From positions 1,249,753 through 1,313,752 of the forward strand of contig CATQHL010000001.1 in the NCBI GenBank assembly GCA_958295925.1: DNA of 64,000 nt, in the 5' to 3' direction. Below are positions 7,515-42,232 of this stretch, one piece after another (within the stretch, counting starts at the first letter, position 1; each line of letters starts with the position of its first letter). Position numbers and translations under genes: made by a program. The notes under the pieces were generated by a model. The model worked only from the letters and a program-made list of their open reading frames with translations, was not told the DNA's origin and did no database searches. This DNA comes from an uncultured Acidimicrobiales bacterium. Its GTDB lineage: Bacteria; Actinomycetota; Acidimicrobiia; Acidimicrobiales; CATQHL01.

Positions 7515-7531
7515 ACCCTCCCTAGGCCAAC

Positions 7532-11284: not shown

Positions 11285-11287
11285 CAG

Positions 11288-12934: not shown

Positions 12935-12941
12935 CAGCCTC

Positions 12942-15104: not shown

Positions 15105-15113
15105 GCCAGTCCT

Positions 15114-15413: not shown

Positions 15414-15419
15414 TGTCGG

Positions 15420-15929: not shown

Positions 15930-15942
15930 CCGCCAAGACCTC

Positions 15943-16473
15943 TCACTGCGGCACGGCCCGCTTTTTCTGGGTGGAGCCCGCTTCGTAGCCCTCAAACTCC
16001 GGAACCGTGTCCATCCAGTCGGCCAGGCGGTCGGCGTCGTGCAGCAAATCGGCAATGCGGGGTTCGGAGTACTCGAACTCCGGGCTCCAGAAGAGGGCGT
16101 CGAAGGGGCAGACCTCCACGCAGATTCCGCAGTACATGCACAGCGCGTAGTCAATGTCGAAGCGGTCGATCTTGTTGCGCTGGCGAGGCTTGCCGCCAGG
16201 GCGACGCGGGGGGGCGAGTTCCTTGTGCCCCTCTATGTAGATGCACCAGTCGGGGCACTCCCTTGCACAGAGCATGCACACTGTGCAGTTGTCGTGATGC
16301 AGGCCGATCACGCCCCTGGCCCTGGTAACCGGCTCCTCCTTGACATGCGGATACTGAACGGTGTGCGCCCCGCGGGTGGGCGATGGCGGCTTTGTGAGCC
16401 CATCGGGAAACAGGGTGCGGAGCATCGTGCGCGCCGTCACGCCCATTCCTGTCAAGAGTCCTTTTCCTTTCAT
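15943..16473 (-). CDS. nuoI: NADH-quinone oxidoreductase subunit I (operon 1), 2x[4Fe-4S]
   Basis: 176 aa; [12 protein letters not shown] and [12 protein letters not shown] ferredoxin motifs. Confidence 0.9.
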
Positions 16474-16614
16474 GCTTTCACCCTTCCTGGCTGTTGACCG
16501 ACAGCTTTCCGGTGTTTGAACGACCAGACAGGTCGCAGGCCATCGATGCCTGACGACAGCGGGAGTTCAAAAAGACGAAGCCCGTCCTGCGCTTCGCCCG
16601 CGCACCAGCGCACA

Positions 16615-17664
16615 TCACACAAACACCTTGAATATGCCTGTCATGACGATGTTCAACAACGAGAGCGGGATGAGGACCTTCCAGGCGAACTTCTGAAGCT
16701 GGTCTTCCCGCAGGCGAGGGAAGGTGAAGCGAAACCAGAAGATCAACGCCGAGACGGCCATGATCTTCACGAACATAACGATGGGGCCAACCAGGTTCAG
16801 CCAGTTGGAGTCCACGTCGAAGCCCGGCACGTACCAGCCACCAAGGAAGAGGACTGAGGCGATTCCTGCGAAGGCGAAGGCCGTGCCGAACTCCGCCATG
16901 AAGAAAAAGAGAAAACGGAAGCCGGTGTACTCCACCTGGTAGCCCCCCACCAGTTCCGACTCGGCGACCGGCATGTCAAACGGGGGCTGGGTGAGCTCGG
17001 CCTGGACCGCCACGAGGAAGATGGCGAAGCCCACGAACTGCGTGAGGATGAAGGGAAAGCCGATCCCGCCCCAGCCGAACAGTTCGCCGGTGGCCTGCGC
17101 CACGACGATCTTGTTGAGATCCAGCGTGCCCGCCTGGATCACAACCCCCATCACCGCCAGAACCAGCGGCAGTTCATAGGCGATGAGCTGGCCTGCGGCA
17201 CGCATCCCGCCCATCAGCGCGTACTTGTTGGCGGAGCCCCAGCCCGCCATCAGCACCCCTATCACCGAGAGCGAAGCAACCGCCAGGGCGAAGAACAGGC
17301 CGGCGTCAAGCCCCGAGACAACGGCGTCAGGCCCCATCGGCAGAACCACGTACAGCAGGAAAGTGGAGATCAGCACCACGGCGGGCGCAAGGGCGAAGAC
17401 GGCGCGGTCGGCCCGACGGGGGAACACGTCCTCTTTCTGCAGGAACTTGAGGCCGTCGGCCAGGAGCTGCAGCGAGCCGTGCGGTCCGGCTTCCATCGGC
17501 CCGAGGCGGCTCTGCATGAAGCTCATCATCTTCAGCAGGAACACGTACCCCAATATGAGGGCCGCGGTGGGGATCACGATGGCCACAACCACCAGCTTGA
17601 TGGCGGTCTGCTGCCAGTAGGCCAGCTCGACGGCGAAGACGCTCAGGGACGCGGCGGCGCTCAT
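16615..17664 (-). CDS. nuoH: NADH-quinone oxidoreductase subunit H (operon 1)
   Basis: 349 aa; contains SRLGPMEAGPHGSLQLLADGLKF and PFDMPVAESELVGGYQVEY. Confidence 0.9.
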   Translation of the reverse strand: MSAAASLSVFAVELAYWQQTAIKLVVVAIVIPTAALILGYVFLLKMMSFMQSRLGPMEAGPHGSLQLLADGLKFLQKEDVFPRRADRAVFALAPAVVLISTFLLYVVLPMGPDAVVSGLDAGLFFALAVASLSVIGVLMAGWGSANKYALMGGMRAAGQLIAYELPLVLAVMGVVIQAGTLDLNKIVVAQATGELFGWGGIGFPFILTQFVGFAIFLVAVQAELTQPPFDMPVAESELVGGYQVEYTGFRFLFFFMAEFGTAFAFAGIASVLFLGGWYVPGFDVDSNWLNLVGPIVMFVKIMAVSALIFWFRFTFPRLREDQLQKFAWKVLIPLSLLNIVMTGIFKVFV

Positions 17665-18830
17665 CGGTCGATGTCACCCAGGATGAAGTAGAGGCTGGCC
17701 AGGATGGTGATCACGTCGGGCACGTACACGCCTCGGAGCACCCACGGCACAACAGAGATGTTGCTGAATGAGGCGGAGCGGATCTTCACCCTGAAAGGCG
17801 CCAACTCGCCCTTGCTCACCACGTAGTAGCCCATCACTCCAAGGGGGTTCTCAGTGGCCACGTATGCCTCGCCCGCGGGCACCTTGATGATGCGCGGCAC
17901 CTTGGCCATGATCGGCCCCGAAGGCAGCCCGTCGAGGAGCTGCTCGACCATGTAGGTGGCTTCCCGGGTTTCCTGCAGCCGTACCCAGTAACGGGCGAAG
18001 GAGTCGCCGTCGGGGTGCGTCCAGACCTTCCAGTCCAACGACTCGTAAGCCAGGCCGCAGGGGTTGTCGCGGCGCATGTCCCAGTCAACCCCGGCGGCGC
18101 GGAGGTTTGCGCCGGAAAGCCCGAAGGACGCCGCCACATGGTCGGGAATGACCCCCACGCCCCGTGTGCGGGCTTCAAAGATCTCGTTGCCCATCAGCAG
18201 GTCTTCAAGCTCATCGCAGAAACCGCGCATCTTTGCCATCACGCTCTTGGTCTCGGCGATCCAGCCCGCCGGCAGGTCGTCTTTAAGCCCGCCGATTCGG
18301 TCGAAGTTGGGGTGAAAGCGCCCGCCCGTGACCGCCTCTATCTGGTTGAGCACGAACTCCCTGTCTCTGAAGGCGAAGAAGACGGGGGTGAGGGCGCCCA
18401 GCTGCACGCCCATGTCGCCTAGGAACAGGGAGATGTTGGCGATTCTGGAGAGCTCGAACAGGGCGGTGCGAATCCACTGTGCGCGGGGCGGGGCCTCTAT
18501 ATCCATCAGTCGCTCGGCGGCGAGGATGAACGGCACCTCGTTGGCGAAGCTCCCCAGCCAGTCGATGCGGTTGATGAGGGTGGTGACCTGCGGATACGTG
18601 CGCACCTCCGCCAGCTTTTCGTAGCCCCGATGCATGTAGCCCATCACTGGCTCGGCGGCCACTACCTGCTCGCCGTCCAGGCGGGCCACGATGCGCAGGG
18701 TGCCGTGGGTGGCGGGGTGCTGCGGGCCGATGTTGAGGGTCATCCCCTCCGTCTCCAGCTCGACGTTGACCCTGGCGTCGGCCGACGCTGCGTCTACGTA
18801 CGCCTGCTGCTCCCTTTCGGTGAACGTCAC
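17661..18830 (-). CDS. nuoD: NADH-quinone oxidoreductase subunit D (operon 1)
   Basis: Track ORF 17661..19022 trimmed to the GTG at 18830 (residue 65), which forms a GTGA overlap with the nuoC stop. Contains MTLNIGPQHPATHGTLRIV. Confidence 0.9.
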   Translation of the reverse strand: MTFTEREQQAYVDAASADARVNVELETEGMTLNIGPQHPATHGTLRIVARLDGEQVVAAEPVMGYMHRGYEKLAEVRTYPQVTTLINRIDWLGSFANEVPFILAAERLMDIEAPPRAQWIRTALFELSRIANISLFLGDMGVQLGALTPVFFAFRDREFVLNQIEAVTGGRFHPNFDRIGGLKDDLPAGWIAETKSVMAKMRGFCDELEDLLMGNEIFEARTRGVGVIPDHVAASFGLSGANLRAAGVDWDMRRDNPCGLAYESLDWKVWTHPDGDSFARYWVRLQETREATYMVEQLLDGLPSGPIMAKVPRIIKVPAGEAYVATENPLGVMGYYVVSKGELAPFRVKIRSASFSNISVVPWVLRGVYVPDVITILASLYFILGDIDR

Positions 18831-19516
18831 TGCCCGGCTCCTGCAGGCGGCTCTTCGCCCTCGGCGGGCATACCCTCCACGTCCACGATGCCCGGCCAGG
18901 GCTTTACCCGGCGGGCCAGCAGCGGGAAGTCCTTGCGCAGGGGATGGCCCTCGAACTCGCCGGGCAGGTAGATGTGGCGCAGGTCGGGGTGGCCGACGAA
19001 GGCGATGCCAAACATCTCCCACGCCTCCCGCTCGTGCCAGTTGGCGCCGGAATAGACAGGTATCCAGGTGGGCACCGCTGGATTCTCGTTTGGGAGGTCG
19101 GCCTTGGCGATTACCCCCAGGCCGGTTTGCGTATTCATCACCCTGGCGAAGACCTGCAAGCGGGTCTCGCCGCCAGTTACGCCGCTCTCTATGGAGAGAT
19201 CGCGGGGATCAGGGCCGCCCGTCGGCCAGTCCTGTTCTGCGTCCATGTCCCGGCCGAAGGGGGAGGGCATCCAGTCGATGGCCGAAAGGAAGTCGAACCA
19301 GAGGCAGCCAAGACGGTCGCGCAGCACGTAGCCAACCTGCTGCCAGGCCTGATGTTCGACACGCACCCAGAGGTCGCCTTCGGCGTGAGTGGCCAGCAGC
19401 GCGTCGCCAAGAGCCTCGCCCAGGGTCTCTACGGCCTCGGCGCGCAGCGCTTCAAGAGGCGTGGGCGACGGCGCCCCGCCGTCTGTCTCGGCTATCGCAG
19501 AGGTCGGCTCGGCCAT
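18827..19516 (-). CDS. nuoC: NADH-quinone oxidoreductase subunit C (operon 1)
   Basis: Track ORF 18827..19945 overlaps nuoB out of frame. I trimmed it to ATG 19516 (MAEPTSAI...). Contains [42 protein letters not shown]. Confidence 0.85.
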   Translation of the reverse strand: MAEPTSAIAETDGGAPSPTPLEALRAEAVETLGEALGDALLATHAEGDLWVRVEHQAWQQVGYVLRDRLGCLWFDFLSAIDWMPSPFGRDMDAEQDWPTGGPDPRDLSIESGVTGGETRLQVFARVMNTQTGLGVIAKADLPNENPAVPTWIPVYSGANWHEREAWEMFGIAFVGHPDLRHIYLPGEFEGHPLRKDFPLLARRVKPWPGIVDVEGMPAEGEEPPAGAGQ

Positions 19517-19530
19517 TCCTGCCAGTTCGG

Positions 19531-20031
19531 TTATTCCACCACTATCGGGTCGCCACGCCAGCGGGCGGCGATGTCCTCGTTTGCGATGCGCTCCTGGAGC
19601 AGCACTATCCCCTCCAGCAGCGCCTCCGGTCGAGGCGGGCAACCCGGCACGTAGACGTCCACCGGGATGATCTGGTCGACGCCCTTGGTTACTGAGTAGG
19701 AGTCCCAGTAGGGCCCCCCGCAGTTGGCGCAGGAACCCATCGAGATCACGTATTTCGGATCGGGCATCTGTTCGTAGAGGCGGAGCAGCGACGGCACCAT
19801 CTTGTCGGTGACCGTGCCGGAGACAACCACGAGGTCGGCCTGTCGCGGGCTGGCGGGGAAGGGAATTACCCCAAGGCGCATCACGTCGTAGCGGGGGGAG
19901 CCGAAAGCGGCGCCCATCTCGATGGCACAACAGGCGAGGCCCCACTGGTAGACCCAGAGGGAGTACTTCCGTGAGAGGTTGAGCAGTTTCGTGAGCGGGG
20001 CGGGCATCTTTCCGCTCTCGATGAGTCCCAT
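19531..20031 (-). CDS. nuoB: NADH-quinone oxidoreductase subunit B (operon 1)
   Basis: 166 aa. The cluster N2 ligand motifs are all present: [17 protein letters not shown] and PGCPPRPE. Confidence 0.9.
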
Positions 20032-20088
20032 CAGCCGCTTCCCTCCTTTAGCTTCGCCATTGGCCTTGCCGAGCGGGACACGCCTGCC

Positions 20089-20463
20089 CTACACCCATTG
20101 CAGGACGCGCTTGCGCCACGCATAGAACAAGCCAAGGGCAAGAATGAAGATGAAGATCGCCATCTCCACCAGGCCGAACACCCCATAGGTCTCGAGACGT
20201 GTCGCCCACGGGAAAATGAAGACGGCCTCAACGTCGAACATCACGAAGAGCAGCCCGAAGAGGTAATAGCGAAGACGGCTCTGCGACCATCCCTCCCCGA
20301 CGGGATCAACACCGCTCTCGTAGCTGATGTACTTTTGCTTTTGAGGACGCTCAGGGCGCAGCACGGAAGCCAGCGTGAGCATGAGGGCGACCATTATCAC
20401 GGCTAGCAGGGCGAAGATTCCGACCGTGAGGTAGCTGCGCAGGAAGTCGGACACGGGAGACAA
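20089..20463 (-). CDS. nuoA: NADH-quinone oxidoreductase subunit A (operon 1)
   Basis: 124 aa with three TM helices; contains YESGVDPVG and FDVEAVFIFPWA. Confidence 0.9.
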   Translation of the reverse strand: MSPVSDFLRSYLTVGIFALLAVIMVALMLTLASVLRPERPQKQKYISYESGVDPVGEGWSQSRLRYYLFGLLFVMFDVEAVFIFPWATRLETYGVFGLVEMAIFIFILALGLFYAWRKRVLQWV

Positions 20464-20639
20464 TCCTACTCAGCGAGTCGGATTGGCGACAGGCTCTTGC
20501 CTCAACATGGCTGGCTTGGGCTGGTGGACGCTTGTTTAGCGGTCGACGGGCGCCTGGGCGCTTGGCGGTCCGAGCAATTGGCAGTTCCTAGACCTGACAC
20601 CTGACGCGGCGGCGGCGACCGCGCTGGTGTGCGTGGTCG

Positions 20640-23179: not shown

Positions 23180-26100
23180 ATGAATGACGATTTCTTCACG
23201 AAACCAATCCTGAACTCGCCCTACGAGCACCCAGGGCGGCACTGGAAGCTTGACGACGACCGGCAGCCGACCAGTTGCGTCGTCCAACGGCGGCGGAAGG
23301 CGGACTTCATCACGCCCATTCCCAAGTCGCGCAAGAGCAAGGCGCAGCAGCGCGAGATGTCCTTTGACGCCAAGGCCAGGGCGCTGGAAGCCGAGGGCAG
23401 CGGGCAGTACCGCATCGCGGAAGTCATCAACGACCTGCGCGGGGTGGTGGAAGCGTGGAGGCTAAGCCCTGAGCGCGAATGGCGAGTCACCGCTGAGACC
23501 GCCCGCCTGCTGCGGCACTGGCGTACCCACGAATTCAACGACATTCGTCCGTTCTTCTGCCAGGTGGAGGCCGTCGAGACGATCATCTGGCTAACCGAGG
23601 TTGCGCCCAAAATCGGAAATCGGGGGAAGAGTTTTCTGGAGCACCTCAACGTCGCCAACGATGAGGCCAATCCAGGTCTTTCCAGGCTGGCGCTGAAGAT
23701 GGCCACAGGAGCGGGTAAGACCACCGTGATCGCGATGATCATCGCCTGGCAGACCGTCAACGCCGTTCGCCATCCTCGCAGCAATCGGTTTACAAACGGA
23801 TTTCTCGTAGTCACGCCGGGCATCACAATTCGCAACCGTCTTCGCGTGCTTCAGCCGAACGATCCCGACAGCTACTACGAGCGGCGTGAGCTCGTCCCAA
23901 GGGACATGCTCTCCGAGCTGGGCAAGGCGAGGATCGTCATCACCAACTATCACGCCTTTCTTCGCCGTGAGGCGATGGAACTCACCAAGGCCGGGCGCGC
24001 CTTGCTTCAGGGGCGCGGCCCCGCTCTGGAAACCAAGGAGACCGAGGGCCAGATGCTCCAGCGCGTGATGCCCTCCCTGATGGGGTTCAAGCAGATAATG
24101 GCCATCAACGACGAAGGCCACCACTGCTACAGGGAGAAGCCTCCCGAGGACAGCGACGAGAAAACGCTCACGGGCGACGAAAAGGTCGAGGCCTCGGCCA
24201 ACAAGGAGGCCGCACGGGTTTGGATTTCAGGGCTGGAAGCCGTTGGGCGCAAAATCGGGCTGAGCCGAGTGGTTGACCTCTCTGCCACTCCTTTCTTCCT
24301 GCGTGGGTCGGGTTACGCCGAAGGGACGCTCTTCCCCTGGACGATGAGCGACTTTTCCCTGCTCGACGCCATCGAGAGCGGCATCGTGAAACTGCCCAGG
24401 GTGCCTGTGGCCGACAACGTCCCCAGCGAGGAAATGCCGAAGTTCCGAAACATCTGGGAGCACATCGGCAAGAAGATGCCTAAGGGCAGGCGAAGCAAGA
24501 AGGTCGTGCTCGACCCGCTGAAGCTCCCGATCGAGCTGCAGACGGCGTTTGAAGCCCTCTACGGCCACTATGAGAAGACTTTCACTGCCTGGGAGCGGGA
24601 TGGGATAGAGGCGCCGCCGTGCTTCATCGTGGTCTGCAACAACACCGCAACGTCCAAGCTGGTCTACGACTACATCTCTGGTTTCCACCGTGAGCAGGAG
24701 GGTGGGCAGCGGGAGTTCCACAACGGGCGCCTGGCGCTCTTTCGCAACTACGGCAACAGCGGCGCGCCCCTGCCCAGGCCCCGGACGCTGCTCATCGACA
24801 GTGTTCAGCTCGAGTCGGGCGAGGCGCTCAGCGCCGACTTCCGCAAGGTGGCTGCCGAGGAGATCGAGCGTTTCAGGCGTGATTTTGTCCAGCGCACAGG
24901 CAACCGGCGGCAGGCGGAGAACCTCTCCGAGCAGGACCTGCTGCGGGAGGTGATGAACACTGTTGGCAGACCTGGGCTGCTCGGTGGCGAGACACGGTGC
25001 GTCGTCTCGGTCTCGATGCTCACCGAGGGCTGGGACGCCACGAACGTCACGCATGTGATGGGGGTTCGGGCGTTCAGCACCCAGCTGCTGTGCGAGCAGG
25101 TGGTGGGGCGGGCGCTGCGCCGACAGTCATACGACTTGAACGCCGAGGGGCTGTTTGACGTTGAGTATGCGGACGTGCTGGGCATCCCGTTCGACTTCAC
25201 CGCCAAGCCCGTGGTTGCACCCCCGCAGAAGCCGCGCGAGACGGTGCTGGTGAAGGCCGTCAGCCCCGATCGCGACGCCTGCGAGATTCGTTTTCCGAGG
25301 GTGGAGGGCTACCGGGTTGAGCTGCCTGAAGATCGCCTTGACGCCGTCTTCAACAACGATTCGACGATGGTTCTCACACCTCAGCTCGTCGGCCCGTCAA
25401 TCACGCGCAATGAGGGCATTCTCGGCGAGTCGGCTGAACTTACTTTGGATCACCTCAAGAGCAAGCGGCTGAGCACTATCACCTACAGGCTGACCAAACG
25501 ACTTCTCGAGACGAAGTGGCGCGATGCAGGTGATCTGCCGCGCCTGCATTTGTTCGGGCAGCTCAAGCGCATCACACGTCGATGGCTCGATGAGCACCTC
25601 GTCTGCAAGGGCGGCACCTTTCCGGCGCAAGTTCTGTATCAAGAGTTGGCCGACACGGCCTGCGAGCGCATCAACATCGGAATAGTCGAGCAGCACAGGG
25701 GGGAGCGCCCGATAACTGCCATCCTCGATCCCTACAATCCTGTCGGCTCCACCTCTGAGGTGCACTTCACCACTTCCAAGACACCGCGTTGGCGCACCAG
25801 GAGCGACCTCTGCCACGTCAACTGGGCGGTCTGCGACAGCGAATGGGAGGCGGAGTTCTGCCGGGCTATCGAGTCGTATCCGCGTGCGCGCGCCTACGTG
25901 AAGAACCAGGGGCTAGGCCTGGAGGTGCCGTATCAGATGGGATCTGAGCCGCGTCGCTACATTCCCGACTTCATAGTGCTGATAGACGACGGGCATGGAG
26001 ACGACGACCTGCTCCACCTAGTGGTGGAGGTTAAGGGCTACAGGGGCGAGAACGCCAAGGTCAAGAAGCTGACCATGGACACATTCTGGGTGCCGGGTGT

Positions 26101-26221
26101 CAACTATTTGAAGTCGTTCGGGCGCTGGGCATTCATAGAGTGCGCGGATGTCTGGGAAATAGAGGAGGAGCTGCACGAGCAGATCGACCGGGCGACAATC
26201 AAGGAAAGGCTGGCAGCGTAA
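23180..26221 (+). CDS. res: type III-like restriction enzyme Res subunit: SF2 helicase plus C-terminal PD-(D/E)xK nuclease
   Basis: Track ORF 23084..26221. I prefer ATG 23180 (MNDDFFTKPILNSPYEHPGRHW). It has motif I (MATGAGKTTV), motif II (INDEGHH, a DExH box), and the C-terminal nuclease motif YIPDFIVLI...HLVVEVKGYRG. GC content is host-like, about 65%. Confidence 0.85.
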   Translation: MNDDFFTKPILNSPYEHPGRHWKLDDDRQPTSCVVQRRRKADFITPIPKSRKSKAQQREMSFDAKARALEAEGSGQYRIAEVINDLRGVVEAWRLSPEREWRVTAETARLLRHWRTHEFNDIRPFFCQVEAVETIIWLTEVAPKIGNRGKSFLEHLNVANDEANPGLSRLALKMATGAGKTTVIAMIIAWQTVNAVRHPRSNRFTNGFLVVTPGITIRNRLRVLQPNDPDSYYERRELVPRDMLSELGKARIVITNYHAFLRREAMELTKAGRALLQGRGPALETKETEGQMLQRVMPSLMGFKQIMAINDEGHHCYREKPPEDSDEKTLTGDEKVEASANKEAARVWISGLEAVGRKIGLSRVVDLSATPFFLRGSGYAEGTLFPWTMSDFSLLDAIESGIVKLPRVPVADNVPSEEMPKFRNIWEHIGKKMPKGRRSKKVVLDPLKLPIELQTAFEALYGHYEKTFTAWERDGIEAPPCFIVVCNNTATSKLVYDYISGFHREQEGGQREFHNGRLALFRNYGNSGAPLPRPRTLLIDSVQLESGEALSADFRKVAAEEIERFRRDFVQRTGNRRQAENLSEQDLLREVMNTVGRPGLLGGETRCVVSVSMLTEGWDATNVTHVMGVRAFSTQLLCEQVVGRALRRQSYDLNAEGLFDVEYADVLGIPFDFTAKPVVAPPQKPRETVLVKAVSPDRDACEIRFPRVEGYRVELPEDRLDAVFNNDSTMVLTPQLVGPSITRNEGILGESAELTLDHLKSKRLSTITYRLTKRLLETKWRDAGDLPRLHLFGQLKRITRRWLDEHLVCKGGTFPAQVLYQELADTACERINIGIVEQHRGERPITAILDPYNPVGSTSEVHFTTSKTPRWRTRSDLCHVNWAVCDSEWEAEFCRAIESYPRARAYVKNQGLGLEVPYQMGSEPRRYIPDFIVLIDDGHGDDDLLHLVVEVKGYRGENAKVKKLTMDTFWVPGVNYLKSFGRWAFIECADVWEIEEELHEQIDRATIKERLAA

Positions 26222-26377
26222 TCAGTTGGTTATTATGACAGAAAAACTTCTTTGAGGTCGATTATAATGCTATTGAAACCAATCGTTTCGAAACCTTCGA
26301 CGGGGCATTGTTCTGCTTGCAACACGATTATAACCTGAAGGCATCTTTGCAAGACCCGATAATCCTAGACTGTTCTA

Positions 26378-27160
26378 ATGATAAGTGATCAAATAAGCCT
26401 ACAGAAATTTCTGAGCGAACGCCTCTGCCAAGATGTGCGGCTAGTCGAACGCCAGGATGGTGCTGTAATGATACGTACTTACTTTGAGTTTCCAGATGGC
26501 GATCGGTACGCGATAAATATTACCGAACAAAGTGCTGGCACATTTCGCTTATCCGATCTAGGCCATACCCTCATGGAAATCAGCTATAAACTCGATATAA
26601 ACTCTCTGTACGAAGGAACTCGAAGAGCTATCTTGGAGCGCATTATGGAAGAAAATTCAATTCAGTGGGAAGGCAGAGATTTTTTTCTTGACACGTCATT
26701 GGTTGAATTGCCAGAAGCACTATTTCGATTTATTCAAGCTCTTACTAGAATATATGATATTACATTGTTATCAAGAACACATGTTGAGTCAACTTTCAAT
26801 GACGACCTATCAGAAATCATTTTTGCACTAGTTGAAGAAGAAAGAATTCAGCGCGAATATCATCCTCACGTACCCAATGCTGAAGCTTATCCTGTTGATT
26901 ACTATATTAAATGCAGTGCGGATGTGCCACTATTCTTGTTCGGAGTTTCTAATCAAAGCAAAGCACGTTTGATAACCATAAAATTATCGCATTATCATCG
27001 CTACGAATTGCAATTTAATTCTATTTTGATATTTGACAACCAAAGCAAAATCTCCAGAATGGATCTCACGCGACTATCTGATGTGGGTGGTGAAATGATT
27101 TCTTCCCTTGATGCAAAAAAGGATTTGGAGAGAAAACTTCTACAACACATATCAGCATAA
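26378..27160 (+). CDS. hypothetical protein embedded between res and mod (DUF1828/DUF1829-like by recollection, unverified)
   Basis: 260-aa low-GC ORF. The N-terminal half (MIRTYFEFPDGDRYAINITEQSAGTFRLSDLGHTLMEISY...RRAILERIMEENSI) resembles the DUF1828 pattern. No catalytic motif was recognised. Confidence 0.6.
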   Translation: MISDQISLQKFLSERLCQDVRLVERQDGAVMIRTYFEFPDGDRYAINITEQSAGTFRLSDLGHTLMEISYKLDINSLYEGTRRAILERIMEENSIQWEGRDFFLDTSLVELPEALFRFIQALTRIYDITLLSRTHVESTFNDDLSEIIFALVEEERIQREYHPHVPNAEAYPVDYYIKCSADVPLFLFGVSNQSKARLITIKLSHYHRYELQFNSILIFDNQSKISRMDLTRLSDVGGEMISSLDAKKDLERKLLQHISA

Positions 27161-27209
27161 GTTTGCTTTTCTCATCAATCAATAGCTTTTGATATAGGGG
27201 GCACAGACG

Positions 27210-27506
27210 ATGGCCAAACAAATTGAGACTCTAAGACATTCAGAGGATTCTCGGGCGAACATTCCTACTGCGGAGCAGGAGCCGACGCTTCAGAAAGATG
27301 TGCTTGAAGCAATTCGGGCAACCTACAGCAGATGCAACGGAGACCTTGATCCTCAGCTTGTCTGGAGGGGAAAAGGCTTGGCTGAATGGTCGGACTTGGT
27401 TGTCCCTGTTCCTCCTTTGTTTATCCAAGAAAAGGTGCAACCCAAGGTTTTGATCGACGATTTAGTGCACCGCGCTAATCGCGAAGCCCCCCCCCCGAGT
27501 ATTTGA
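27210..27506 (+). CDS. mod: mod, N-terminal fragment (98 codons) ending at a frameshift in a C10 tract
   Basis: AGGGGG RBS 8 nt upstream of the ATG. DLDPQLVWRGKG...LFIQEKVQPKVLIDDL is the usual N-terminus of this class of Mod protein. The stop at 27504-27506 lies directly after the C10 run. Confidence 0.8.
   Translation: MAKQIETLRHSEDSRANIPTAEQEPTLQKDVLEAIRATYSRCNGDLDPQLVWRGKGLAEWSDLVVPVPPLFIQEKVQPKVLIDDLVHRANREAPPPSI
27487..27496. repeat. homopolymeric C10 tract inside mod
   Basis: cgc gaa gCC CCC CCC CCg agt att tga. Removing one C (C9), or adding two, reads REAPPRVFEPELWSDFNGLPPEA with no stop and fuses 27210..27506 to 27514..30045, for about 944 aa. Confidence 0.9.
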
Positions 27507-27513
27507 ACCGGAA

Positions 27514-30045
27514 TTGTGGAGTGATTTCAATGGCCTTCCTCCTGAAGCGCGCTCAGCCGAATTTTATGAGCATGAGGCTAATTGGTCTAACAGAATGATT
27601 TTAGGCGACGCCCTTCATGTCATGGCGTCGCTAGCTGAAAAGGAAGGGTTAAAGGGCAAAGTACAGTGTATATACATTGATCCGCCATATGGGATCAAGT
27701 TCAACTCCAACTTTCAGTGGTCAACAAATAGTCGAAATGTCCAAGACGGGAAAAAGGGCCACATTACCCGAGAGCCGGAGCAAGTAAAGGCGTTTCGAGA
27801 CACATGGAAAGATGGTATTCACTCATACTTGACATACATAAGAGACCGACTAACAGTTGCTAGAGAGTTGCTCAACGAAACTGGCTCAATATTTGTTCAA
27901 ATTGGCGACGAGAATGTGCACCGTGTACGCGCGCTGATGGATGAAGTGTTTGGGGAGAAAAATTTCGTAAGTTTAATTACATACAAGACTACAAGTGGTA
28001 CTACTCAACACAGGTCGATTAGAAGAATTTCTGACTACATACTTTGGTACAGTAAGACTGCCGACCAAAATAAGTTTCGAAGATTGCTTGAACTAAAAAC
28101 TTTGGACACAAAGAGCTATAACCAATTGCAGCTCCTCACTGGAACTCGTCGAACTATGACAACACAAGAGAGAAAAGATCCTGCACTATGCCCAGCGTCA
28201 TCACGACCTTATCAAAAATTGCCGATGCATTCGATGGGTGCGGGCGATAACGCACCTAGAGGACTATTCAGCAAACTATGGCATATCCCCCAAGCAAGGC
28301 ACTGGACGTACACAATTGAAGGATTTTATCGACTTGCAAAGGCATCACGTATCGAACGAGACATTAATGTAGTACGTTCAATCCATTATCATGATGATTA
28401 TCCTGCATATGAAATTTCGAATTCTTGGGAAGATACTTCCCCCGAGACAGATAAATCATATGTTATTCAGACCGCGAAACTGCCAATTGAACGATGCATA
28501 CTTATGACAACTGATCCAGGCGATCTTGTTCTCGACCCCACTTGCGGGTCGGGAACTACTGCGTATGTTGCTGAGCAGTGGGGTAGGCGTTGGATCACCA
28601 TTGACACTTCCCGAGTGGCCCTTGCGCTGGCGCGGGCTCGCATCATGGGTGCTCGCTATCCCTACTATCTGTTATCCGACAGTCCTGAAGGGCAGGCGAA
28701 GGAAGCCGAACTATCGCAGAATGGGCAATCAACTGAAGAAACCCACAGAAGAATCCGACAAGGCTTCGTCAATAAACGAGTGCCACACATAACTCTTCGA
28801 AGCATTGCTAACAACGCTGAAATCGATGTCATCCACGACAAACACCAGCAGACGCTTGAACCTCTCCGTTCAAAGTTGAACGAAGCGCTAGGAACCGCTT
28901 GGGAGGAGTGGGAGATCCCACACGACGCCGACGGCAAATGGTCACATGAAGCAAAAACCCTGCACAATCAATGGTGGAAGCACCGCATCGCCCGTCAGCG
29001 GGAAATAGACGCCTCTATAAAGGCCAAAGCCGACCACGAGTATCTCTACGACAAGCCCTACGAAGACAAGAAGAAGGTTCGCATGGCGGGGCCTTTCACG
29101 GTGGAAAGTCTTTCCCCGCACCGCTACCTCGGCGTCGACGAGGACGACGAACTCATTGATCAACCTAGAGTCGGCAAGCTCGACTTCGAGGAGCAGCGGG
29201 ATTTTGTGAAGACGATTATTGAAAACCTGCGGAACGCAGGCGTCCAGCAGGCTCAGAAAGAAGACAAAATCACATTCACTTCGCTCACGGCCTGGCCAGG
29301 GACCGACTTTCCCCAAGAAGGGGCTAGAAGCGAGCTTGGCACAGGAATTTGTGCCGAAGGGCGCTACATAGAAGGCAGCAAGGAATCAGGAAAAGAAAGG
29401 CGCGCCGCTGTTTTCGTGGGCCCGGAATTCGGGACGGTGCAACGAGCCGATCTGGCAAGAGCGGCCCGCGCAGCCGCCGAAGCCGGATTCGATGTGCTGA
29501 TCTCCTGCGCCTTCAACTATGAACCCCAAGCCTCGGACTTCAAGCAAATGGGGCGCATTCCGGTGCTCAAGGCCCGCATGAACCCTGACCTTCACATGTC
29601 GGACGATCTCAAGAACACCGGAGCGGGCAACCTCTTCGTCATCTTCGGCGAGCCGGACATTGAAATATTGCCCGCCGAAGTTGAAGAATCCGGCAGCAAA
29701 GCCGAAGGGAAGGACGATCTGATACGGGTCAAGGTCAACGGGGTAGACGTTTTCCACCCCAACACAGGGGAAATCCGCAGCGATGGGCCGAAAGGCATCG
29801 CCTGCTGGTTCGTCGACACCGACTACAACGAGGAGAGTTTCTTCGTCCGCCACGCCTATTTCCTGGGCGCCGACGACCCCTACAAGAAACTGAAGACCAC
29901 CCTGAAAGCCGAAATCAACGAAGAGGCCTGGGCGACACTGCACAGCGACACGTCTCGTCCGTTCCCGAAGCCGAAATCAGGGCGCATCGCCGTGAAGGTC
30001 ATCAACCACCTCGGCGACGAGGTCATGAAGGTGCTCCGGGTTTAA
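27514..30045 (+). CDS. mod: mod, main part: N6-adenine-type DNA methyltransferase (DPPY ... FxGxG order, beta class)
   Basis: 843-aa ORF. Contains NRMILGDALHVMASL, VQCIYIDPPYGIKFNSNFQW (DPPY at 27679-27690) and LVLDPTCGSGTTAYVAEQWGRRWITIDTSRVALALARARI. The track start is a TTG that is really an internal Leu of the fused gene. Confidence 0.85.
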   Translation: MWSDFNGLPPEARSAEFYEHEANWSNRMILGDALHVMASLAEKEGLKGKVQCIYIDPPYGIKFNSNFQWSTNSRNVQDGKKGHITREPEQVKAFRDTWKDGIHSYLTYIRDRLTVARELLNETGSIFVQIGDENVHRVRALMDEVFGEKNFVSLITYKTTSGTTQHRSIRRISDYILWYSKTADQNKFRRLLELKTLDTKSYNQLQLLTGTRRTMTTQERKDPALCPASSRPYQKLPMHSMGAGDNAPRGLFSKLWHIPQARHWTYTIEGFYRLAKASRIERDINVVRSIHYHDDYPAYEISNSWEDTSPETDKSYVIQTAKLPIERCILMTTDPGDLVLDPTCGSGTTAYVAEQWGRRWITIDTSRVALALARARIMGARYPYYLLSDSPEGQAKEAELSQNGQSTEETHRRIRQGFVNKRVPHITLRSIANNAEIDVIHDKHQQTLEPLRSKLNEALGTAWEEWEIPHDADGKWSHEAKTLHNQWWKHRIARQREIDASIKAKADHEYLYDKPYEDKKKVRMAGPFTVESLSPHRYLGVDEDDELIDQPRVGKLDFEEQRDFVKTIIENLRNAGVQQAQKEDKITFTSLTAWPGTDFPQEGARSELGTGICAEGRYIEGSKESGKERRAAVFVGPEFGTVQRADLARAARAAAEAGFDVLISCAFNYEPQASDFKQMGRIPVLKARMNPDLHMSDDLKNTGAGNLFVIFGEPDIEILPAEVEESGSKAEGKDDLIRVKVNGVDVFHPNTGEIRSDGPKGIACWFVDTDYNEESFFVRHAYFLGADDPYKKLKTTLKAEINEEAWATLHSDTSRPFPKPKSGRIAVKVINHLGDEVMKVLRV

Positions 30046-32712: not shown

Positions 32713-35575
32713 CAAAAGCGGAAAACAGCAGGTGGGACAGGTTCTTCGCCTCCGTCCGCGTACCTTCTGCAAAATCAGGCAACACCCAAGGAAGTGATCC
32801 CCCTTTAGAAAGTAACTTGATCGGGGCTGTGGGAAGCGGGAAAGTAGCAGACTTCACAGAGCAAGCGACGGTCGACCCCGACAATCAGACCACGACGAGG
32901 AGCATCACGCTCCCCGCACCGCGTCGGGCGGAACAACCGGAACGGAACACTTGAAAGTGGGGGCTGCCAACCGAAACTCTGGAACGAAGCAAGCATCGAC
33001 TAGATCGTCGCCTGCAACAACGACTGCCGTAAGTCTCACAAGGTAAACCTCGGCAACTTCGAAGGCGGATCCGGCAATTACGAATGGTCTTAGCTTCCAT
33101 CCAGGGAGCAGGGCGCAGTAATCACGCAGGTTCGCCTAAGTCCTACTGAGCGAGATTATCCTTTATAGTTATATGTAGTAACACAAATTGAACTAAGCAT
33201 CTGCCTGTGCGCGCCACAACAAGGAAAAAATATGTTCGAAAAAATCATTTCAATACGCAACTTAGGTGTATTTGCTGCACAACAGAGCTGCACCTTCAAA
33301 AAGTTTACCTTAATTTATGCTAGAAACGGTTTAGGAAAGAGCACGCTATGCGCAATGTTTAGATCTCTTGAAACAGATAATGCAGATCACCTTATCGGAA
33401 GACAAAGGCTGGGTCAACCAGAAGCACCTGAGGTGTGTCTCCTAATTGATAGAAAGCAATGCAAATATGAAGATAACAGATGGACTCGAGCATTTCCTGA
33501 AATAATAATCTTTGACAATGAATTCATTGCAAACAATGTATACACAGAAATTGTGGAAGCCCGTCATAAGCGTCGCTTTCATCATATTATGCTTGGAGAA
33601 GAAGGAGTAGAGTTAAGAAAAAAAGAATCAGAGATATCAACTAAGAAGCGAGAGATAAAGAAGAAAACTGACGATATTAAGAAGTCAATTCAACAGACTG
33701 TTCCCACCGATTTCGACTTCGAGGAATTTCTATCACTGCAAGAAATTCCAAATATCGATACTATGATTAATGAGCAAGAAAAACTTGTAAAAGCAATAAC
33801 TGAAGAAGGTCAGATTCTTTGCCATCCAGGGATTCCGAAACTATCGATGCCTTTACTCCCCGACAATCTGTTTGACTCTCTGCAAAAAAAATTCGAAAAC
33901 CTTTCACTTGAAGCAGAAGAAACCTTGAATCAACACCTTGCAGCCCATGGAATGAAATCCGCTGATAAAGATTGGCTTGTTGAAGGCTTAAGTTACATTT
34001 CTGAGGAGTCATGCCCATTTTGTGGGCAAAACGTACAGGGGCTTCCCCTAATTGGTGCTTATCGTTCAGTGTTCAACGAAACATTTCGATCATTTCAGCA
34101 TTCAATAGACAAGATGATAGATGATATAGGTAAGCAATTCGGCGAACTTGCAATTAGCGAATTTAAGCATCTCGTTTCCCAGCATAAACGTGAGCTAGAG
34201 TTTTGGAATCAACATTGTGAAATAGATGAACAAATATATATAATTTCAGACAGTCTGACTGAATTGCTCCGTTACCTGGGTAGAGCAGCAATAAGCACGT
34301 TGATAGAAAAGAAAAATTCGCCACATAAGCCAATAAGTTGTTCTGACGAATTCAAATCGAAATATGAGTCATACAAGAACGAGCTTTCTGAAATTACAGA
34401 ATTAAACTCCAATTTTTGTGAAATTAATTCAAAAATCGAAGAAAGGAAGCAACAAGTTGGTGCATCTGGTCTAGTGGAGGAAACGCGAAAACTTGATAAC
34501 TTGCGAGTTTCCAAAATACGATACCAAGATTGCACTAGAAAATTATGTGAAAACTTTACAGAACAGTCTAAGCTACTTAAGAAACTCGATAATGAAGTTA
34601 AAGAAGTTCGAAGTCGGCTAAAGAATTATTCTGACAGTGCCGTTGAACCTTTTGCAGACCGAATAAATTCTTTATTGAAAGATTTCGGGACTAGTTTCAG
34701 AATCGCTAAAATTGAAAACAGCTTTAAAGGTGGCGAACCTCAGTCAGAATATTGCATAGAAATAAACGAAGAGCAAGTTCCACTTGGCACAAGTAAAACC
34801 CCTCTTTCTAAACCGAGTCTCAGGAATACGTTAAGCTCAGGAGATCGATCTACACTAGCGTTTGCATTTTTTCTCTCTCAGTTAGGCAAAGATCCTCTGA
34901 TGAATCAAAAAATAGTAATATTCGATGATCCATTTGGTAGCATGGACAGATTTCGAAGGCAGCAAACAGTATACAGCATTGTCGACACCTCAGAGAAAAG
35001 CAAGCAAACAATTGTTCTTTCACATGACGTAGACTTCTTGAAACTAGTCTTCCGTGAGAATATAATCAACAAATCTGAACTTATCACTTTGCAGTTGTCC
35101 GCTAAACAGAAAAATCGTGTCATCATAGAAAATGCTGACTTTGATAATATTGATCAGAATCCAGCCGATCAAGATATTGAAGATTTGCAAAACTATCTTA
35201 CAAACAGTGTTGGGAATGAATTAGATATAATTAGGAAACTTCGTCCTCTTCTTGAAACGCACTTGCGCAAGAATTATCCAAATTTAGCATCCGGTAGTGC
35301 CAATATAGCCGGATTTCTTTCAAATATTGAAAATCTGAATGATGCCCATCCGCTCAAGGATCAGATTCAAAGAATTCACGGTATAAATAATTTCACAAAA
35401 ATATATCACCATGGCAACGAAATTAATCGTCGCAACGAATCCATAGATCCTGGTGAATTGAAGACTTTTGTCAAACAAACTCTTGAGATAATTGGTTATC
35501 CTATTGATTAATATAGGTAAATTCTCGAGCTAGAGAAAGTCGTGACACTCAAGTACTCATATTTGCTGTTTGATG
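32713..35575. other. low-GC island carrying the RloC-like gene
   Basis: 32713-33100 is intermediate GC (about 50%) with no ORF, and 33100-35575 is about 35-38% GC. The right edge is about 25 nt from the nuoN (operon 2) stop. No integrase, tRNA or att-like repeat was recognised. Confidence 0.6.
33232..35511 (+). CDS. AAA_13-family ATPase, RloC/PrrC-like (candidate anticodon nuclease or abortive-infection protein)
   Basis: 759 aa with an AAGGA RBS. It has Walker A (YARNGLGKSTL, 33319-33345), a long Lys/Glu-rich insert, and CPFCGQ (34012-34023), which fits a Rad50-like zinc-hook CxxC. LSSGDRSTLAFAFFLSQL is ABC-signature-like. Walker B (IVIFDDPFGSMD) and VLSHDVDFL are present. The C-terminal LRPLLETH...DAHP...YHHG (from 35242) resembles the PrrC Arg/Glu/His arrangement. 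Confidence 0.8.
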   Translation: MFEKIISIRNLGVFAAQQSCTFKKFTLIYARNGLGKSTLCAMFRSLETDNADHLIGRQRLGQPEAPEVCLLIDRKQCKYEDNRWTRAFPEIIIFDNEFIANNVYTEIVEARHKRRFHHIMLGEEGVELRKKESEISTKKREIKKKTDDIKKSIQQTVPTDFDFEEFLSLQEIPNIDTMINEQEKLVKAITEEGQILCHPGIPKLSMPLLPDNLFDSLQKKFENLSLEAEETLNQHLAAHGMKSADKDWLVEGLSYISEESCPFCGQNVQGLPLIGAYRSVFNETFRSFQHSIDKMIDDIGKQFGELAISEFKHLVSQHKRELEFWNQHCEIDEQIYIISDSLTELLRYLGRAAISTLIEKKNSPHKPISCSDEFKSKYESYKNELSEITELNSNFCEINSKIEERKQQVGASGLVEETRKLDNLRVSKIRYQDCTRKLCENFTEQSKLLKKLDNEVKEVRSRLKNYSDSAVEPFADRINSLLKDFGTSFRIAKIENSFKGGEPQSEYCIEINEEQVPLGTSKTPLSKPSLRNTLSSGDRSTLAFAFFLSQLGKDPLMNQKIVIFDDPFGSMDRFRRQQTVYSIVDTSEKSKQTIVLSHDVDFLKLVFRENIINKSELITLQLSAKQKNRVIIENADFDNIDQNPADQDIEDLQNYLTNSVGNELDIIRKLRPLLETHLRKNYPNLASGSANIAGFLSNIENLNDAHPLKDQIQRIHGINNFTKIYHHGNEINRRNESIDPGELKTFVKQTLEIIGYPID

Positions 35576-35598: not shown

Positions 35599-37155
35599 TC
35601 AGCCGCCGAGCACTGCAAGCGTGGCGTCGCCCGCCAGGTTCAGCAGAGGGGCTGGCCATACGCCGAAGAACAGCGTCACCGCAGCGCAGACAGCCACCAC
35701 GAAGCCGACAGAGCGGGGAACAGCCACAGGCGGGCGCGAATCCGAGTCCTCGTCGCCTGAACGCGAGTCATCCGCCAAGCCGACGCCCGACTTCTGCGAC
35801 GCAAGGGCGTCGCCGTCCGCGCCGGGGCGCACAAGATACATCCGCACCACCAGGCGCAGATACACGAACGCCGCCACCACGGCGCCGAGCATCGACACGG
35901 CAGCCAGCCAGTAGGTGCGAGACTGCACGGCTGCGCCGATCACTTCGAACTTGGCCCAGAAGCCCGTGGTGAACGGCAGGCCGGCCTGGGCCAGCAACAG
36001 CAGCGTGAAACCCAGTGCCAGCCAGGGCGACCGACGTGCCAGGCCGTCGTAGGCCGCGAGCGGCTGAGAGCCGGAGGCGTCTCGTCCCATGACCATGACC
36101 ACTGCGAAACTGCCCAGGGCCATGAAGGCGTAGACGCCCAGGTAGAGGAGGGAGGCCGAGGTGCCGTTGGCGCCGGCCGACTCCAGTCCGACCAGGATGA
36201 ATCCGGCATGGCCGATGGATGAGTAGGCAAGCAGCCTGCGCACGTCGCCGGAAATGACCCCGAGGGCCGATCCCGCCAGCACTGTGATCACTGCAACTAC
36301 CGCAACGGCTGGCCGCCAGTCGGCGCTGCTCGCGGAGAACGTTCCGGCGAAGAGACGCAGCAGGGCGGCGAAACCCGCTGCCTTCACCCCGGCCGCCATG
36401 TAGGCAACGGCAGGTGAGGGTGCGCCTTCGTAAACGTCGGGCGTCCAGGCGTGGAAGGGCACGGCGGCCACCTTGAAGAACAGGCCGACCAGCAGCAGGG
36501 CGAAACCGGCCAGGAGCATGCCCCGGGCGTTCGAGCCTGCGCCTGCGGCCAGGGCGGCCGCTACGGAATCCAGCTTCGTCGAACCTGCGGCCCCGTAAAT
36601 GAGAGCCGCCCCGTAGAGAAAGAAGGCCGAGGCGAACGCCCCCAGCACGAAGTACTTGAGGCCGGCTTCCTGAGACCCCGCTCGACGCAAGTCGAGGGCC
36701 GCCAGCACGTACGCCGCAATGGAGAGCACTTCCAGACCCAGGAAGAGCACGATCAGGTCGTTGGCCGACGCAAGGGTCACCCCCCCGGCGGCCGAGAGCA
36801 GCAGAAGAACGCTGAACTCCTCGGGAGGGAGGCCGGCTCGACGGATAGAGAAAGGTGCGAACACCAGCGCCAGGAGAGCGGCGATCACTACGACCCCGCT
36901 CAGGAAGACGGCGAACCCGTCGATCTGAACCGTGCCGGCGATTGTGCTGAACGCTCCGCGTGAGGGATCCTGCACCCGCACCCACTGCCAGACGACGCTG
37001 CCGAAAGCGGCCAGCGTGAGACCGATGCCCAAGACGTTGGGCAGCCACCACGGCGCCCGCTTGCGAACCAGGGTTCCCAGCGTGAGCATCACCAGCGAAC
37101 CGCCGCCCAGGAAAATCTGGGGCAACAGGGCAGCCCAGTCCACTGAAGGGCTCAT
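35599..37155 (-). CDS. nuoN: NADH-quinone oxidoreductase subunit N (operon 2)
   Basis: 518 aa; contains FKVAAVPFHAWTPDVYEGAPSPAVAY; last gene of the operon. Confidence 0.9.
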   Translation of the reverse strand: MSPSVDWAALLPQIFLGGGSLVMLTLGTLVRKRAPWWLPNVLGIGLTLAAFGSVVWQWVRVQDPSRGAFSTIAGTVQIDGFAVFLSGVVVIAALLALVFAPFSIRRAGLPPEEFSVLLLLSAAGGVTLASANDLIVLFLGLEVLSIAAYVLAALDLRRAGSQEAGLKYFVLGAFASAFFLYGAALIYGAAGSTKLDSVAAALAAGAGSNARGMLLAGFALLLVGLFFKVAAVPFHAWTPDVYEGAPSPAVAYMAAGVKAAGFAALLRLFAGTFSASSADWRPAVAVVAVITVLAGSALGVISGDVRRLLAYSSIGHAGFILVGLESAGANGTSASLLYLGVYAFMALGSFAVVMVMGRDASGSQPLAAYDGLARRSPWLALGFTLLLLAQAGLPFTTGFWAKFEVIGAAVQSRTYWLAAVSMLGAVVAAFVYLRLVVRMYLVRPGADGDALASQKSGVGLADDSRSGDEDSDSRPPVAVPRSVGFVVAVCAAVTLFFGVWPAPLLNLAGDATLAVLGG

Positions 37156-38714
37156 GGCGACGCCTGCCCGACGGATGGACGGGCGGAATCCGCCCCGGAC
37201 GGGGCGTGCTCCTCCAGATGCTGCACCAGATGCTCCACCGAGGGCTCCATGCGATCGAGCACCGGTCGGGGGTAGATGCCCAGGAAAAGGATGAGCGCAA
37301 GCAGCGGCGCCACCACCAGGCGCTCCCGCCAGGAGAGGTCGGGCAACTTGGCGTTCTCACCGGTCGCGCGGCCCCAGAACACCCGACCGAAGGCCCAGAG
37401 CAGGTAGACGGCGGCAAGGATCACGCCGACAGTGGCGGCTACAGCCCACCAGCGGTGCGAGGAAAACGCTCCCAGCAGCACCAGGAACTCGCCTACAAAC
37501 CCGTTGAGGCCTGGAAGCCCCACGGAGGCGAGCGTCACCAGCAGGAACACGGCGGCCATAATCGGGGCGGGGCGCGCCAAGCCACCCAACTCGGATATCT
37601 CCCGCGTGTGCCGGCGTTCGTAGAGCCAGCCCACCAGCAGGAACAGCGCGCCGGTGGTGATGCCGTGGTTCACCATCTGGAGAAGACCGCCGCTAAGGCC
37701 CTCGACGTTGAGTGCGAAGATGCCCAGGACGATGAAACCCAGGTGTGCCACAGAGGAGTAGGCGATTAGACGTTTGAGGTCGCGCTGCATGGCGGCCACC
37801 GCCGCGCCGTAGACAATTCCCACCACCCCGAAGGTGAGCATGAGCGGCGCAAAGAAGCGGGAGGCCTCTGGAAACAGATAGAGCCCGAAGCGCACGAACC
37901 CGTAGGTGCCCAGCTTCAGCAGCACGCCAGCCAAAATCACAGAACCCGCTGTGGGGGCATCGGTGTGGGCGTCGGGCAGCCAGGTGTGCAGACCGGCCAA
38001 CGGCACCTTCACCGCGAATCCCAGGGCGAAGGCCAGGAACGCCCACCGGGCGGCGGAAGCGGAAATCACCTGGCTCTCGGCGATGGTCACAAGATCAAAG
38101 GTGAGTGGGACGCCGGCTGCGGCTGAATGCAGGAAAGCCGTGGCGAGCACCCCGACGAGCATCAGGGCGGACCCGAACATCGTGAAGAGAAAGAACTTCA
38201 CCGCCGAACGGCGGGCGTTGCCGTGCCCCCACTGCCCGATAAGGAAGTACATAGGAACCAGCACGACCTCGAAGAAGAGGAAGAACAGGAGCAAGTCAAG
38301 CGCCAGGAAGACACCCAGGCAGCCGAACTCCAAGATCAGCAGCCAGACGAAGTACGACTTCCGGTCTCTCGAAGGGGAGGCGGCGAGGGTGGCAAGCGGG
38401 AACAGCAATGCCGTGAGCGCCAGCATGAACAGCGAGATTCCGTCTACCCCGAGCTTCCAGCTGAACCCGATCCGGGAGACCCAGCTCTGGTCAATCAAAT
38501 AGGCGAAGCCTCCGGCCCCGGCGGTGTAGTCCACCACCACCCAGGCCACGAGCGCAGCGGCGGCCAGCATGAACAGCGCGGCGACGGGCTGAAGCATCGA
38601 CGAGCGGCGCGGAAGCACCGCCAGCACCACGGCGCCGACGAGCGGCGTCAGCACCACGGCCACAAGCACGGCGGGAAAATCCGGCGTGGAGGCGGCAGCC
38701 AGCACCACGTCCAT
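37152..38714 (-). CDS. nuoM: NADH-quinone oxidoreductase subunit M (operon 2)
   Basis: 520 aa; contains FAVKVPLAGLHTWLPDAHTDAPTAGSVILAG; 4-nt overlap with nuoN. Confidence 0.9.
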   Translation of the reverse strand: MDVVLAAASTPDFPAVLVAVVLTPLVGAVVLAVLPRRSSMLQPVAALFMLAAAALVAWVVVDYTAGAGGFAYLIDQSWVSRIGFSWKLGVDGISLFMLALTALLFPLATLAASPSRDRKSYFVWLLILEFGCLGVFLALDLLLFFLFFEVVLVPMYFLIGQWGHGNARRSAVKFFLFTMFGSALMLVGVLATAFLHSAAAGVPLTFDLVTIAESQVISASAARWAFLAFALGFAVKVPLAGLHTWLPDAHTDAPTAGSVILAGVLLKLGTYGFVRFGLYLFPEASRFFAPLMLTFGVVGIVYGAAVAAMQRDLKRLIAYSSVAHLGFIVLGIFALNVEGLSGGLLQMVNHGITTGALFLLVGWLYERRHTREISELGGLARPAPIMAAVFLLVTLASVGLPGLNGFVGEFLVLLGAFSSHRWWAVAATVGVILAAVYLLWAFGRVFWGRATGENAKLPDLSWRERLVVAPLLALILFLGIYPRPVLDRMEPSVEHLVQHLEEHAPSGADSARPSVGQASP

Positions 38715-40594: not shown

Positions 40595-40606
40595 GACCGG
40601 CGCCTC

Positions 40607-40909: not shown

Positions 40910-40911
40910 GC

Positions 40912-42230: not shown

Positions 42231-42232
42231 GA

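Follow-up and report, generated by a model that had tools for sequence, protein, structure and literature searches.

A run of ten C residues in the methyltransferase gene (mod) of a Type III-like operon breaks its reading frame in a way that the loss of a single base would undo, and we put the chances at about even that this run may act as a slippage switch of mod. The operon, which carries res, a DUF1828 cargo gene and mod, lies in the 64-kb stretch of DNA that was analysed (hereafter, the window). In a survey of REBASE (Atack et al. 2018; PMC5909438), Type III mod genes with a mononucleotide tract of at least 9 nt were classed as "phase-variable"; 17.4% of mod genes were so by that criterion, and switching rates of ~1e-3 are cited there for 9-nt tracts. 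With ten C's inside its ORF the window gene carries a repeat long enough to slip (at least 9 nt), and by the published sequence criterion it is plausibly an in-silico candidate for a slippage switch. The original prediction of a phase-variable methyltransferase therefore stands as far as the length of the tract and the lack of any other lesion are concerned, and is only slightly weakened by the absence of the tract from the homologues examined.

The tract occupies positions 27487-27496 on the + strand, where ten consecutive C's are flanked as GCGAAG-CCCCCCCCCC-GAGT. No other homopolymer in the window reaches 9 nt; after it in length come one A8 (33884-33891) and fifteen 7-mers. The start codon of mod, ATG 27210, is preceded by the Shine-Dalgarno-like sequence AGGGGG, and from it the 5' fragment of the gene (27210-27506, + strand) runs for 98 codons, reading ...HRANREAPPPSI* with its TGA three codons past the tract. 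The 3' part (27514-30045, + strand) comprises 843 codons if counted from TTG 27514; the frame itself opens at 27466. Removal of one C in silico fuses the two frames as ...REAPPRVFEPELWSDFNGLP..., yielding a whole mod gene (27210-30045, + strand) of 944 codons with a terminal stop only. In this C9 frame, the ON frame of the candidate slipped-strand switch, the tract falls in codons Ala93-Pro94-Pro95. Frame arithmetic places C9 and C12 in frame and C10 and C11 out of frame; a change in repeat number toggles between a full-length product (C9, 944 aa) and a truncated one (C10, 98 aa). The prediction that a C10 at this position ends Mod after 98 codons proved accurate in every detail, and its corollary, that C9 or C12 would restore a Mod of about 944 aa without an intervening stop, was confirmed by the in-silico deletion and the frame arithmetic.

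Comparison with homologues indicates that the two reading frames are the halves of one protein. The 5' fragment aligns with the N-terminal ~100 residues of full-length homologues, and the 3' part contains motif IV (DPPY), a variable TRD, motif I (DPTCGSGTT) and a C-terminal extension of ~450 aa. When the frame is repaired, Mod aligns over 100% of its length, at 60-68% identity, with hundreds of methyltransferases of ~930 aa, all of which carry PF01555 (2.3e-35 for Mod itself). These alignments bear out the claim that a single Mod is split only at the tract and that both halves are contiguous in the family. DPPY lies at residues 157-160 of the repaired protein and DPTCGSGTT (FxGxG) at residues 442-450, so that motif IV precedes motif I with the TRD between them, as in beta-class N6-adenine methyltransferases. 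The PADLOC MTase_III model PDLC03632 scores 1168 bits on Mod, and a profile of the Mod family matches two Type III Mods of solved structure, that of H. pylori (6k0w, 1e-23) and that of EcoP15I (4zcf, 6e-20), in an alignment that spans motif IV, the TRD and motif I (profile positions 119-459). The regions specific to the family are the N-terminal ~100 residues, which are 46-53% identical among its members and include an invariant block, DLDPQ..WRGK, and the C-terminal ~450 residues. Residues 251-400, the predicted TRD, are 50-63% identical to three loci and at most 37% identical to most others; the blocks that flank the TRD are 75-90% identical across the family.

Apart from the frameshift, mod appears to be complete. 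The repaired protein retains 280 of the 290 near-invariant positions of the family. It differs at ten, against a homologue mean of 3.3, although ten or more differences also occur in 4 of 60 homologues; the substitutions are mainly conservative, the exceptions being R42C, Y521N, E754A and A792P. The deviations are compatible with plain divergence or with a mild relaxation of selection. Homologue alignment, motif checks and inspection of the near-invariant positions revealed no second lesion in either mod or res, and the change in tract length is by these measures all that separates the truncated from the full-length product.

The res gene (23180-26221, + strand) encodes a restriction endonuclease of the BPTD_3080 family (NF046055, ResIII). 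Its ORF opens at GTG 23084, and the family-consensus start is ATG 23180, which gives a protein of 1013 aa. Res scores 1290 bits on NCBIfam NF046055 (cut-off 800), matching profile positions 2-969 of 970, and together with the long PF01555 methyltransferase that it adjoins it makes up an NF046055 R-M pair. Judged by the invariant residues of a 31-sequence alignment, Res possesses both SF2 helicase motifs (Walker A G211-K-T-T, D343-E-x-H-H, S400-A-T, and motif VI R676/R679/R680) and a C-terminal PD-(D/E)xK motif (P961-D...E982-x-K984). In Pfam, ResIII matches above its cut-off (5e-7) and RE_endonuc below its cut-off (0.0043). Homology to canonical Type III Res proteins (EcoP15I) was not seen at the sequence level: searches of PDB chains, EcoP15I Res among them, with either the single sequence or the 31-sequence profile gave no match at E up to 1, and the PADLOC REase_III model aligned with a 45-residue stretch only (8e-6).

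Between res and mod lies a full-length cargo gene (26378-27160, + strand; 260 aa, 38% GC) for a DUF1828 protein that matches the PADLOC candidate PDC-M24B. This arrangement is a variant of one that is constant across the family. At every one of the 78 homologous loci at which res was detectable upstream of mod, it lies 5' of mod on the same strand, and at about half of the 78 a cargo of 0.3-3.6 kb separates the two genes. Homologues of the window's DUF1828 protein occupy the cargo slot at two loci, L011 (55% identity) and L080 (53%). The contents of the slot are diverse defence- or toxin-like genes: thirty cargo ORFs sampled from other loci include Schlafen AlbA_2/HATPase_c_4 (6), Fic (5), DUF4062 (4), Bro-N (3), DUF1828 (2) and NYN (2), along with YhcG PDDEXK, KilA-N and AAA_21, and another slot (L002) holds PIN and HepT/NTP_transf_2 toxin-antitoxin genes. 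The res-cargo-mod family amounts to at least 594 loci in many phyla and is also found on plasmids. RefSeq annotates the same res/methyltransferase pair on the conjugative plasmid p1NCPPB4222 of Pseudomonas avellanae; NF046055 pairs such as this one share both genes and their order with the window but have an intact mod without the tract. A literature search for the family name "BPTD_3080" found no paper. The system is Type III-like and belongs to a distinct family, widespread and apparently unstudied.

The original prediction treated the operon as a Type III system. This holds for the core of Mod, given its matches to the solved Type III Mods and to MTase_III, and for the presence of an intact helicase-nuclease Res in the same operon, but the system is not a classical one. 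Shared with EcoP15I and EcoP1I are a Mod core, alignable with EcoP15I Mod over motif IV, the TRD and motif I, and a Res in which SF2 DEAH helicase motifs are joined to a C-terminal PD-(D/E)xK motif. In those systems, however, mod precedes res, the usual Type III order, whereas in the window res precedes mod with an optional cargo between them. The Mod of EcoP15I has 644 aa and that of the window 944 aa, with family-specific regions at the N-terminus (~100 aa) and the C-terminus (~450 aa). The window Res gives no sequence-level match to any PDB chain, whether searched singly or by profile.

The tract sits in a block of low GC content that starts directly after the stop codon of res and ends near residue ~540 of Mod (26222-28830, the right-hand boundary being approximate). 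GC content falls from ~61% in res to 38% just past the res stop and stays within 38-46% across the block, where GC3 in mod is 0.25-0.52; in the 3' part of mod GC3 climbs to 0.6-0.83. The block holds the cargo gene, the 5' end of mod with the tract, and the TRD. This composition suggests that cargo, mod 5' end with tract, and TRD may have been imported as one block into a res...mod frame of more host-like composition, and the sharp drop in GC together with the return of GC3 would fit a cassette swapped in by recombination. No donor of the block was found by TRD comparison with L011 and L080 or by searches of a phage collection, in which there was no match, and of plasmids, in which matches reached only ~70% DNA identity over conserved blocks. 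A common cassette origin with the two DUF1828 loci, L011 and L080, was considered and rejected, the identity of their TRDs to that of the window being 27-30%.

Elsewhere the window carries recQ, two complex I operons and further housekeeping genes, at ~65% GC. Its NuoG is identical to a protein encoded on a 2.55-Mb contig, and the nearest named relatives of this NuoG are from MAGs of Acidimicrobiia and Acidimicrobiales, at 56-66% identity, which upholds the earlier description of the host as actinobacterium-like. The two NADH:quinone oxidoreductase operons lie on the - strand at 9638-20469 and 35599-50410; one is of the 11-subunit type, without nuoEFG, and the other of the full 14-subunit type with nuoE, F and G. 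At 15.4-20.1 kb, ORFs that seemed to overlap were considered as further frameshifts of a poor assembly and dismissed, as they are adjacent, unbroken nuo genes. Between recQ and nuoN, in surroundings of 65% GC, a single gene of 759 aa (33232-35511, 35-44% GC) matches AAA_13 and the PADLOC candidate PDC-S06 (208 bits), and looks like a separate insertion of a foreign defence gene. A second DNA methyltransferase gene, also of foreign composition (61447-62619, - strand; 390 aa, PF01555, GC3 0.41), lies near the right-hand end of the window, the last 2 kb of which are 51% GC. Near the left-hand end are two paralogous fn3-domain proteins of 1362 aa (1281-5369) and 639 aa (5595-7514), whose genes are near-identical in DNA sequence at their starts (1276-1575 and 5608-5907, 96%) and at their ends (5254-5376 and 7410-7532, 87%).

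Whether the tract is more than a chance event depends on the composition against which it is judged. GC content in 500-nt windows is ~44-46% near the tract and ~65% elsewhere; over the whole window it is 62%. Dinucleotide shuffles of the window gave a mean of 0.65 C10/G10 runs, and 37 of 100 shuffles contained at least one. For the low-GC block around the tract (42-46% GC), in contrast, a first-order Markov estimate predicts ~3e-4 G/C runs of ten or more. The C10 is thus unremarkable relative to whole-window composition and a strong outlier only in its local low-GC setting. The real window contains twelve G/C 7-mers, no 8- or 9-mers and one 10-mer, and in ~1.08 Mb of homologous loci the only other G/C run of at least 10 nt lies outside the mod gene. 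Where mod is low in GC, proline is encoded mostly by CCT (11 of 24 codons), so the run of CCC is unlike a product of local codon usage.

An alignment with 120 homologues places the tract in a linker that is flanked on one side by the conserved block ...LIDDL.R and on the other by DLFADFNGLP, also conserved. The linker varies in both length and sequence and is not conserved across the family; Pro-Pro or Pro-Pro-Pro should therefore be tolerated there. Among the 120 closest proteins, four lacked the anchor motif and were left out, and none of the remaining 116 has a PPP, GGG, KKK or FFF run in the linker. A scan of a genome collection identified at least 80 loci, and in the 80 listed, which are 59-65% identical, mod contains no G/C run of 8 nt or more; a metagenome scan with the flanks of the tract produced no matches. 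Because no homologue examined shares it, the tract is specific to the window gene and not a feature of the family. The comparison had been proposed earlier as a check on the switch, and its outcome, absence at the same site from the 116 proteins and from the 80 loci listed, weighs little: the relatives are distant (at most 68% identity) and belong to other phyla, so that the absence of a repeat from their mod alleles says little about sister strains.

Several irregularities were seen at the homologous loci. In one (L001, 5691-8463), a mod homologue, P0053, with 70% identity is divided into ORFs of 108 and 820 aa by a plain indel or an assembly error; it was evaluated as a second case of a gene split by a tract and set aside, because the split is in the same linker and involves an indel but no homopolymer. 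In a Victivallaceae MAG, a C17 tract (L076, 9945-9961) lies 1.2 kb downstream of the mod homologue and outside any convincing ORF. A res homologue in a long-contig MAG (L020, 2866-5955) has one in-frame stop.

Other explanations of the split have to be weighed against a slippage switch. The true tract may be C9 (or C12), in which case mod would be intact and ON and the split would be an artefact of assembly or base calling; we think this rather unlikely, though well worth entertaining. Homopolymer length is the main residual error of long-read MAG assemblies, and on long-read platforms calling a 10-mer is more difficult than calling an 8-mer. The window comes from a single 2.55-Mb contig of an uncultured Acidimicrobiia-like lineage, which may be a long-read MAG; the frameshift is the sole defect in an otherwise complete operon, and other long-contig MAG loci show sporadic breaks, such as the mod frameshift in L001 and the in-frame stop in the res of L020. 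Against a miscall, the remaining sixteen 7-8-nt homopolymers in the window break no ORF: 14, including the A8, are inside ORFs that read through them, 2 are intergenic, and no other frameshift was seen in the 64 kb, which argues that the assembly is not generally indel-prone. The description of the gene as "currently OFF" accordingly applies to the assembled consensus and would be reversed by a one-base homopolymer miscall. A true length of C9 would mean that the gene is ON, and such a tract would remain long enough to slip.

If C10 is the true length, mod could instead be a plain, recent pseudogene, in which a chance Pro-rich run of C's slipped once and killed the gene, with no selection for reversibility and the system now decaying. 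The absence of the tract from every homologue examined is consistent with this, as are the shuffles, in which runs of this length are not rare under whole-window composition, the somewhat raised number of changes at near-invariant positions (R42C, Y521N, E754A and A792P among the ten), and L001, which demonstrates that inactivation can occur in the same linker. That gene is split where it lacks a tract, and linker splits can therefore arise in other ways. However, the run is highly atypical of its low-GC context, the 843-codon downstream frame is fully open, and the catalytic motifs and res are intact, so that any inactivation must be very recent; moreover a C10 reverts readily, and a dead end would differ from a switch in selection and not in mechanics. 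We consider this explanation unlikely. An old pseudogene in particular is unlikely on the sequence evidence, because the repaired Mod covers 100% of the length of its homologues, keeps its motifs and all but ten near-invariant positions, and is accompanied by a Res in which all the motifs are present. A further alternative, that the OFF state is leaky, strikes us as very improbable. Full-length protein would arise through +1 ribosomal slippage of tRNA-Pro on CCC-C, giving the C9 product, or through transcriptional slippage, or else reinitiation at TTG 27514 would add an 843-aa core to the 98-aa piece. The shift needed is indeed +1, the tract reads CCC CCC CCC C with a 0-frame stop nearby, and CCC-C is a documented +1-prone site for tRNA-Pro (PMC4519876, PMC7577736). 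The TTG is 8 nt past the TGA stop, the 843-aa ORF holds the entire region that aligns with solved Type III Mods, and the downstream piece of L001 likewise begins at the conserved DFNGLP block. But no Shine-Dalgarno sequence was seen before TTG 27514 and no stimulatory element was seen; since no homologue examined shares the feature, recoding is not a programmed trait of the family, and conservation of the N-terminal 100 residues suggests that a truncated Mod may be inactive.

Under the slippage switch, which we prefer, slipped-strand mispairing at replication would alter the length of the C tract. C9 or C12 would yield the full-length 944-aa Mod, and with C10 or C11 translation would stop after ~98-130 codons; the assembled sequence would represent the OFF state. 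Classical Type III Res depends on Mod for target recognition, and its ATP-dependent cleavage requires a pair of unmethylated sites in inverse orientation. If Res of the window needs Mod in the same way, an analogy with the classical systems, the OFF state would silence methylation and restriction together. Possible benefits would include phage defence traded against DNA uptake or the cost of self-restriction. Actual switching, the rate at which it would occur, a need of Res for Mod and any selective benefit are inferences.

The host lineage makes frequent changes in tract length plausible. Actinobacteria have a NucS pathway in place of MutS/MutL, and short indels are not corrected (PMC8228993); in M. 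tuberculosis, frameshifts in homopolymers serve as reversible switches (PMC10334774; glpK preprint). For these reasons, a C10 in such a host would be expected to change length often. The 7C tract of M. tuberculosis glpK offers a likeness, being a C/G homopolymer within a gene of a high-GC actinobacterium whose NucS mismatch repair is blind to indels. It differs in that glpK is a metabolic gene and the window gene an R-M methyltransferase, and the M. tuberculosis variation was seen across thousands of isolates, whereas the window tract is one assembled sequence. The same literature undercuts the earlier suggestion that such a switch would be new for an actinobacterium-like host. The list of Atack et al. 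(PMC5909438) already has Type III mod genes with SSRs from environmental species, one of which, Corynebacterium casei, is an actinobacterium, and homopolymer phase variation is on record for M. tuberculosis (PMC10334774), leaving the claim of novelty weak.

The known phase-variable Type III mods (H. pylori modH, modJ and modL with G[n] tracts, and Campylobacter upsaliensis modU; phasevarions, PMC5909438) resemble the window gene in carrying a G/C homopolymer of at least 9 nt inside the mod ORF, in the toggling of frame by a change in length, and in encoding a beta-class N6-adenine Mod with a central variable TRD. In a phasevarion the tract length also varies within a population or between close strains, and the ON and OFF states are distinguished by genome methylation and by the expression of a regulon. 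The window Mod differs from them in belonging to a family of longer Mods with the order res then mod. Its tract is unique to one gene among ~200 homologues, with no allelic series known, and its host is an Acidimicrobiia-like bacterium, uncultured and free-living, instead of a host-adapted pathogen.

A more far-reaching scenario combines the switch with the mosaic structure of the operon. A free-living, uncultured Acidimicrobiia-like actinobacterium, from a lineage typically without indel-correcting mismatch repair, would have a genuine contingency switch controlling an entire Type III-like defence operon. That switch would have been acquired when an exchangeable cassette of low GC content, comprising the cargo gene, the 5' end of mod and the TRD, recombined with the res...mod frame already in place; a single exchange would then replace specificity, cargo and ON/OFF control together. 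We regard this scenario as improbable.

A slippage switch in a Type III mod is an already known kind of switch. More original are the constant res-cargo-mod architecture with its diverse cargo slot and the low-GC block that joins cargo, TRD and tract. For annotation, a mod gene split in this manner calls for inspection of the reads before it is either recorded as dead or "corrected" into an intact gene. Should the tract prove to switch, the known range of stochastic ON/OFF control of restriction-modification would widen to an uncharacterised and very widespread res-cargo-mod family, and to an uncultured environmental lineage of actinobacteria, in which the likely pay-off would be phage defence balanced against DNA uptake or the cost of self-restriction, and not immune evasion.
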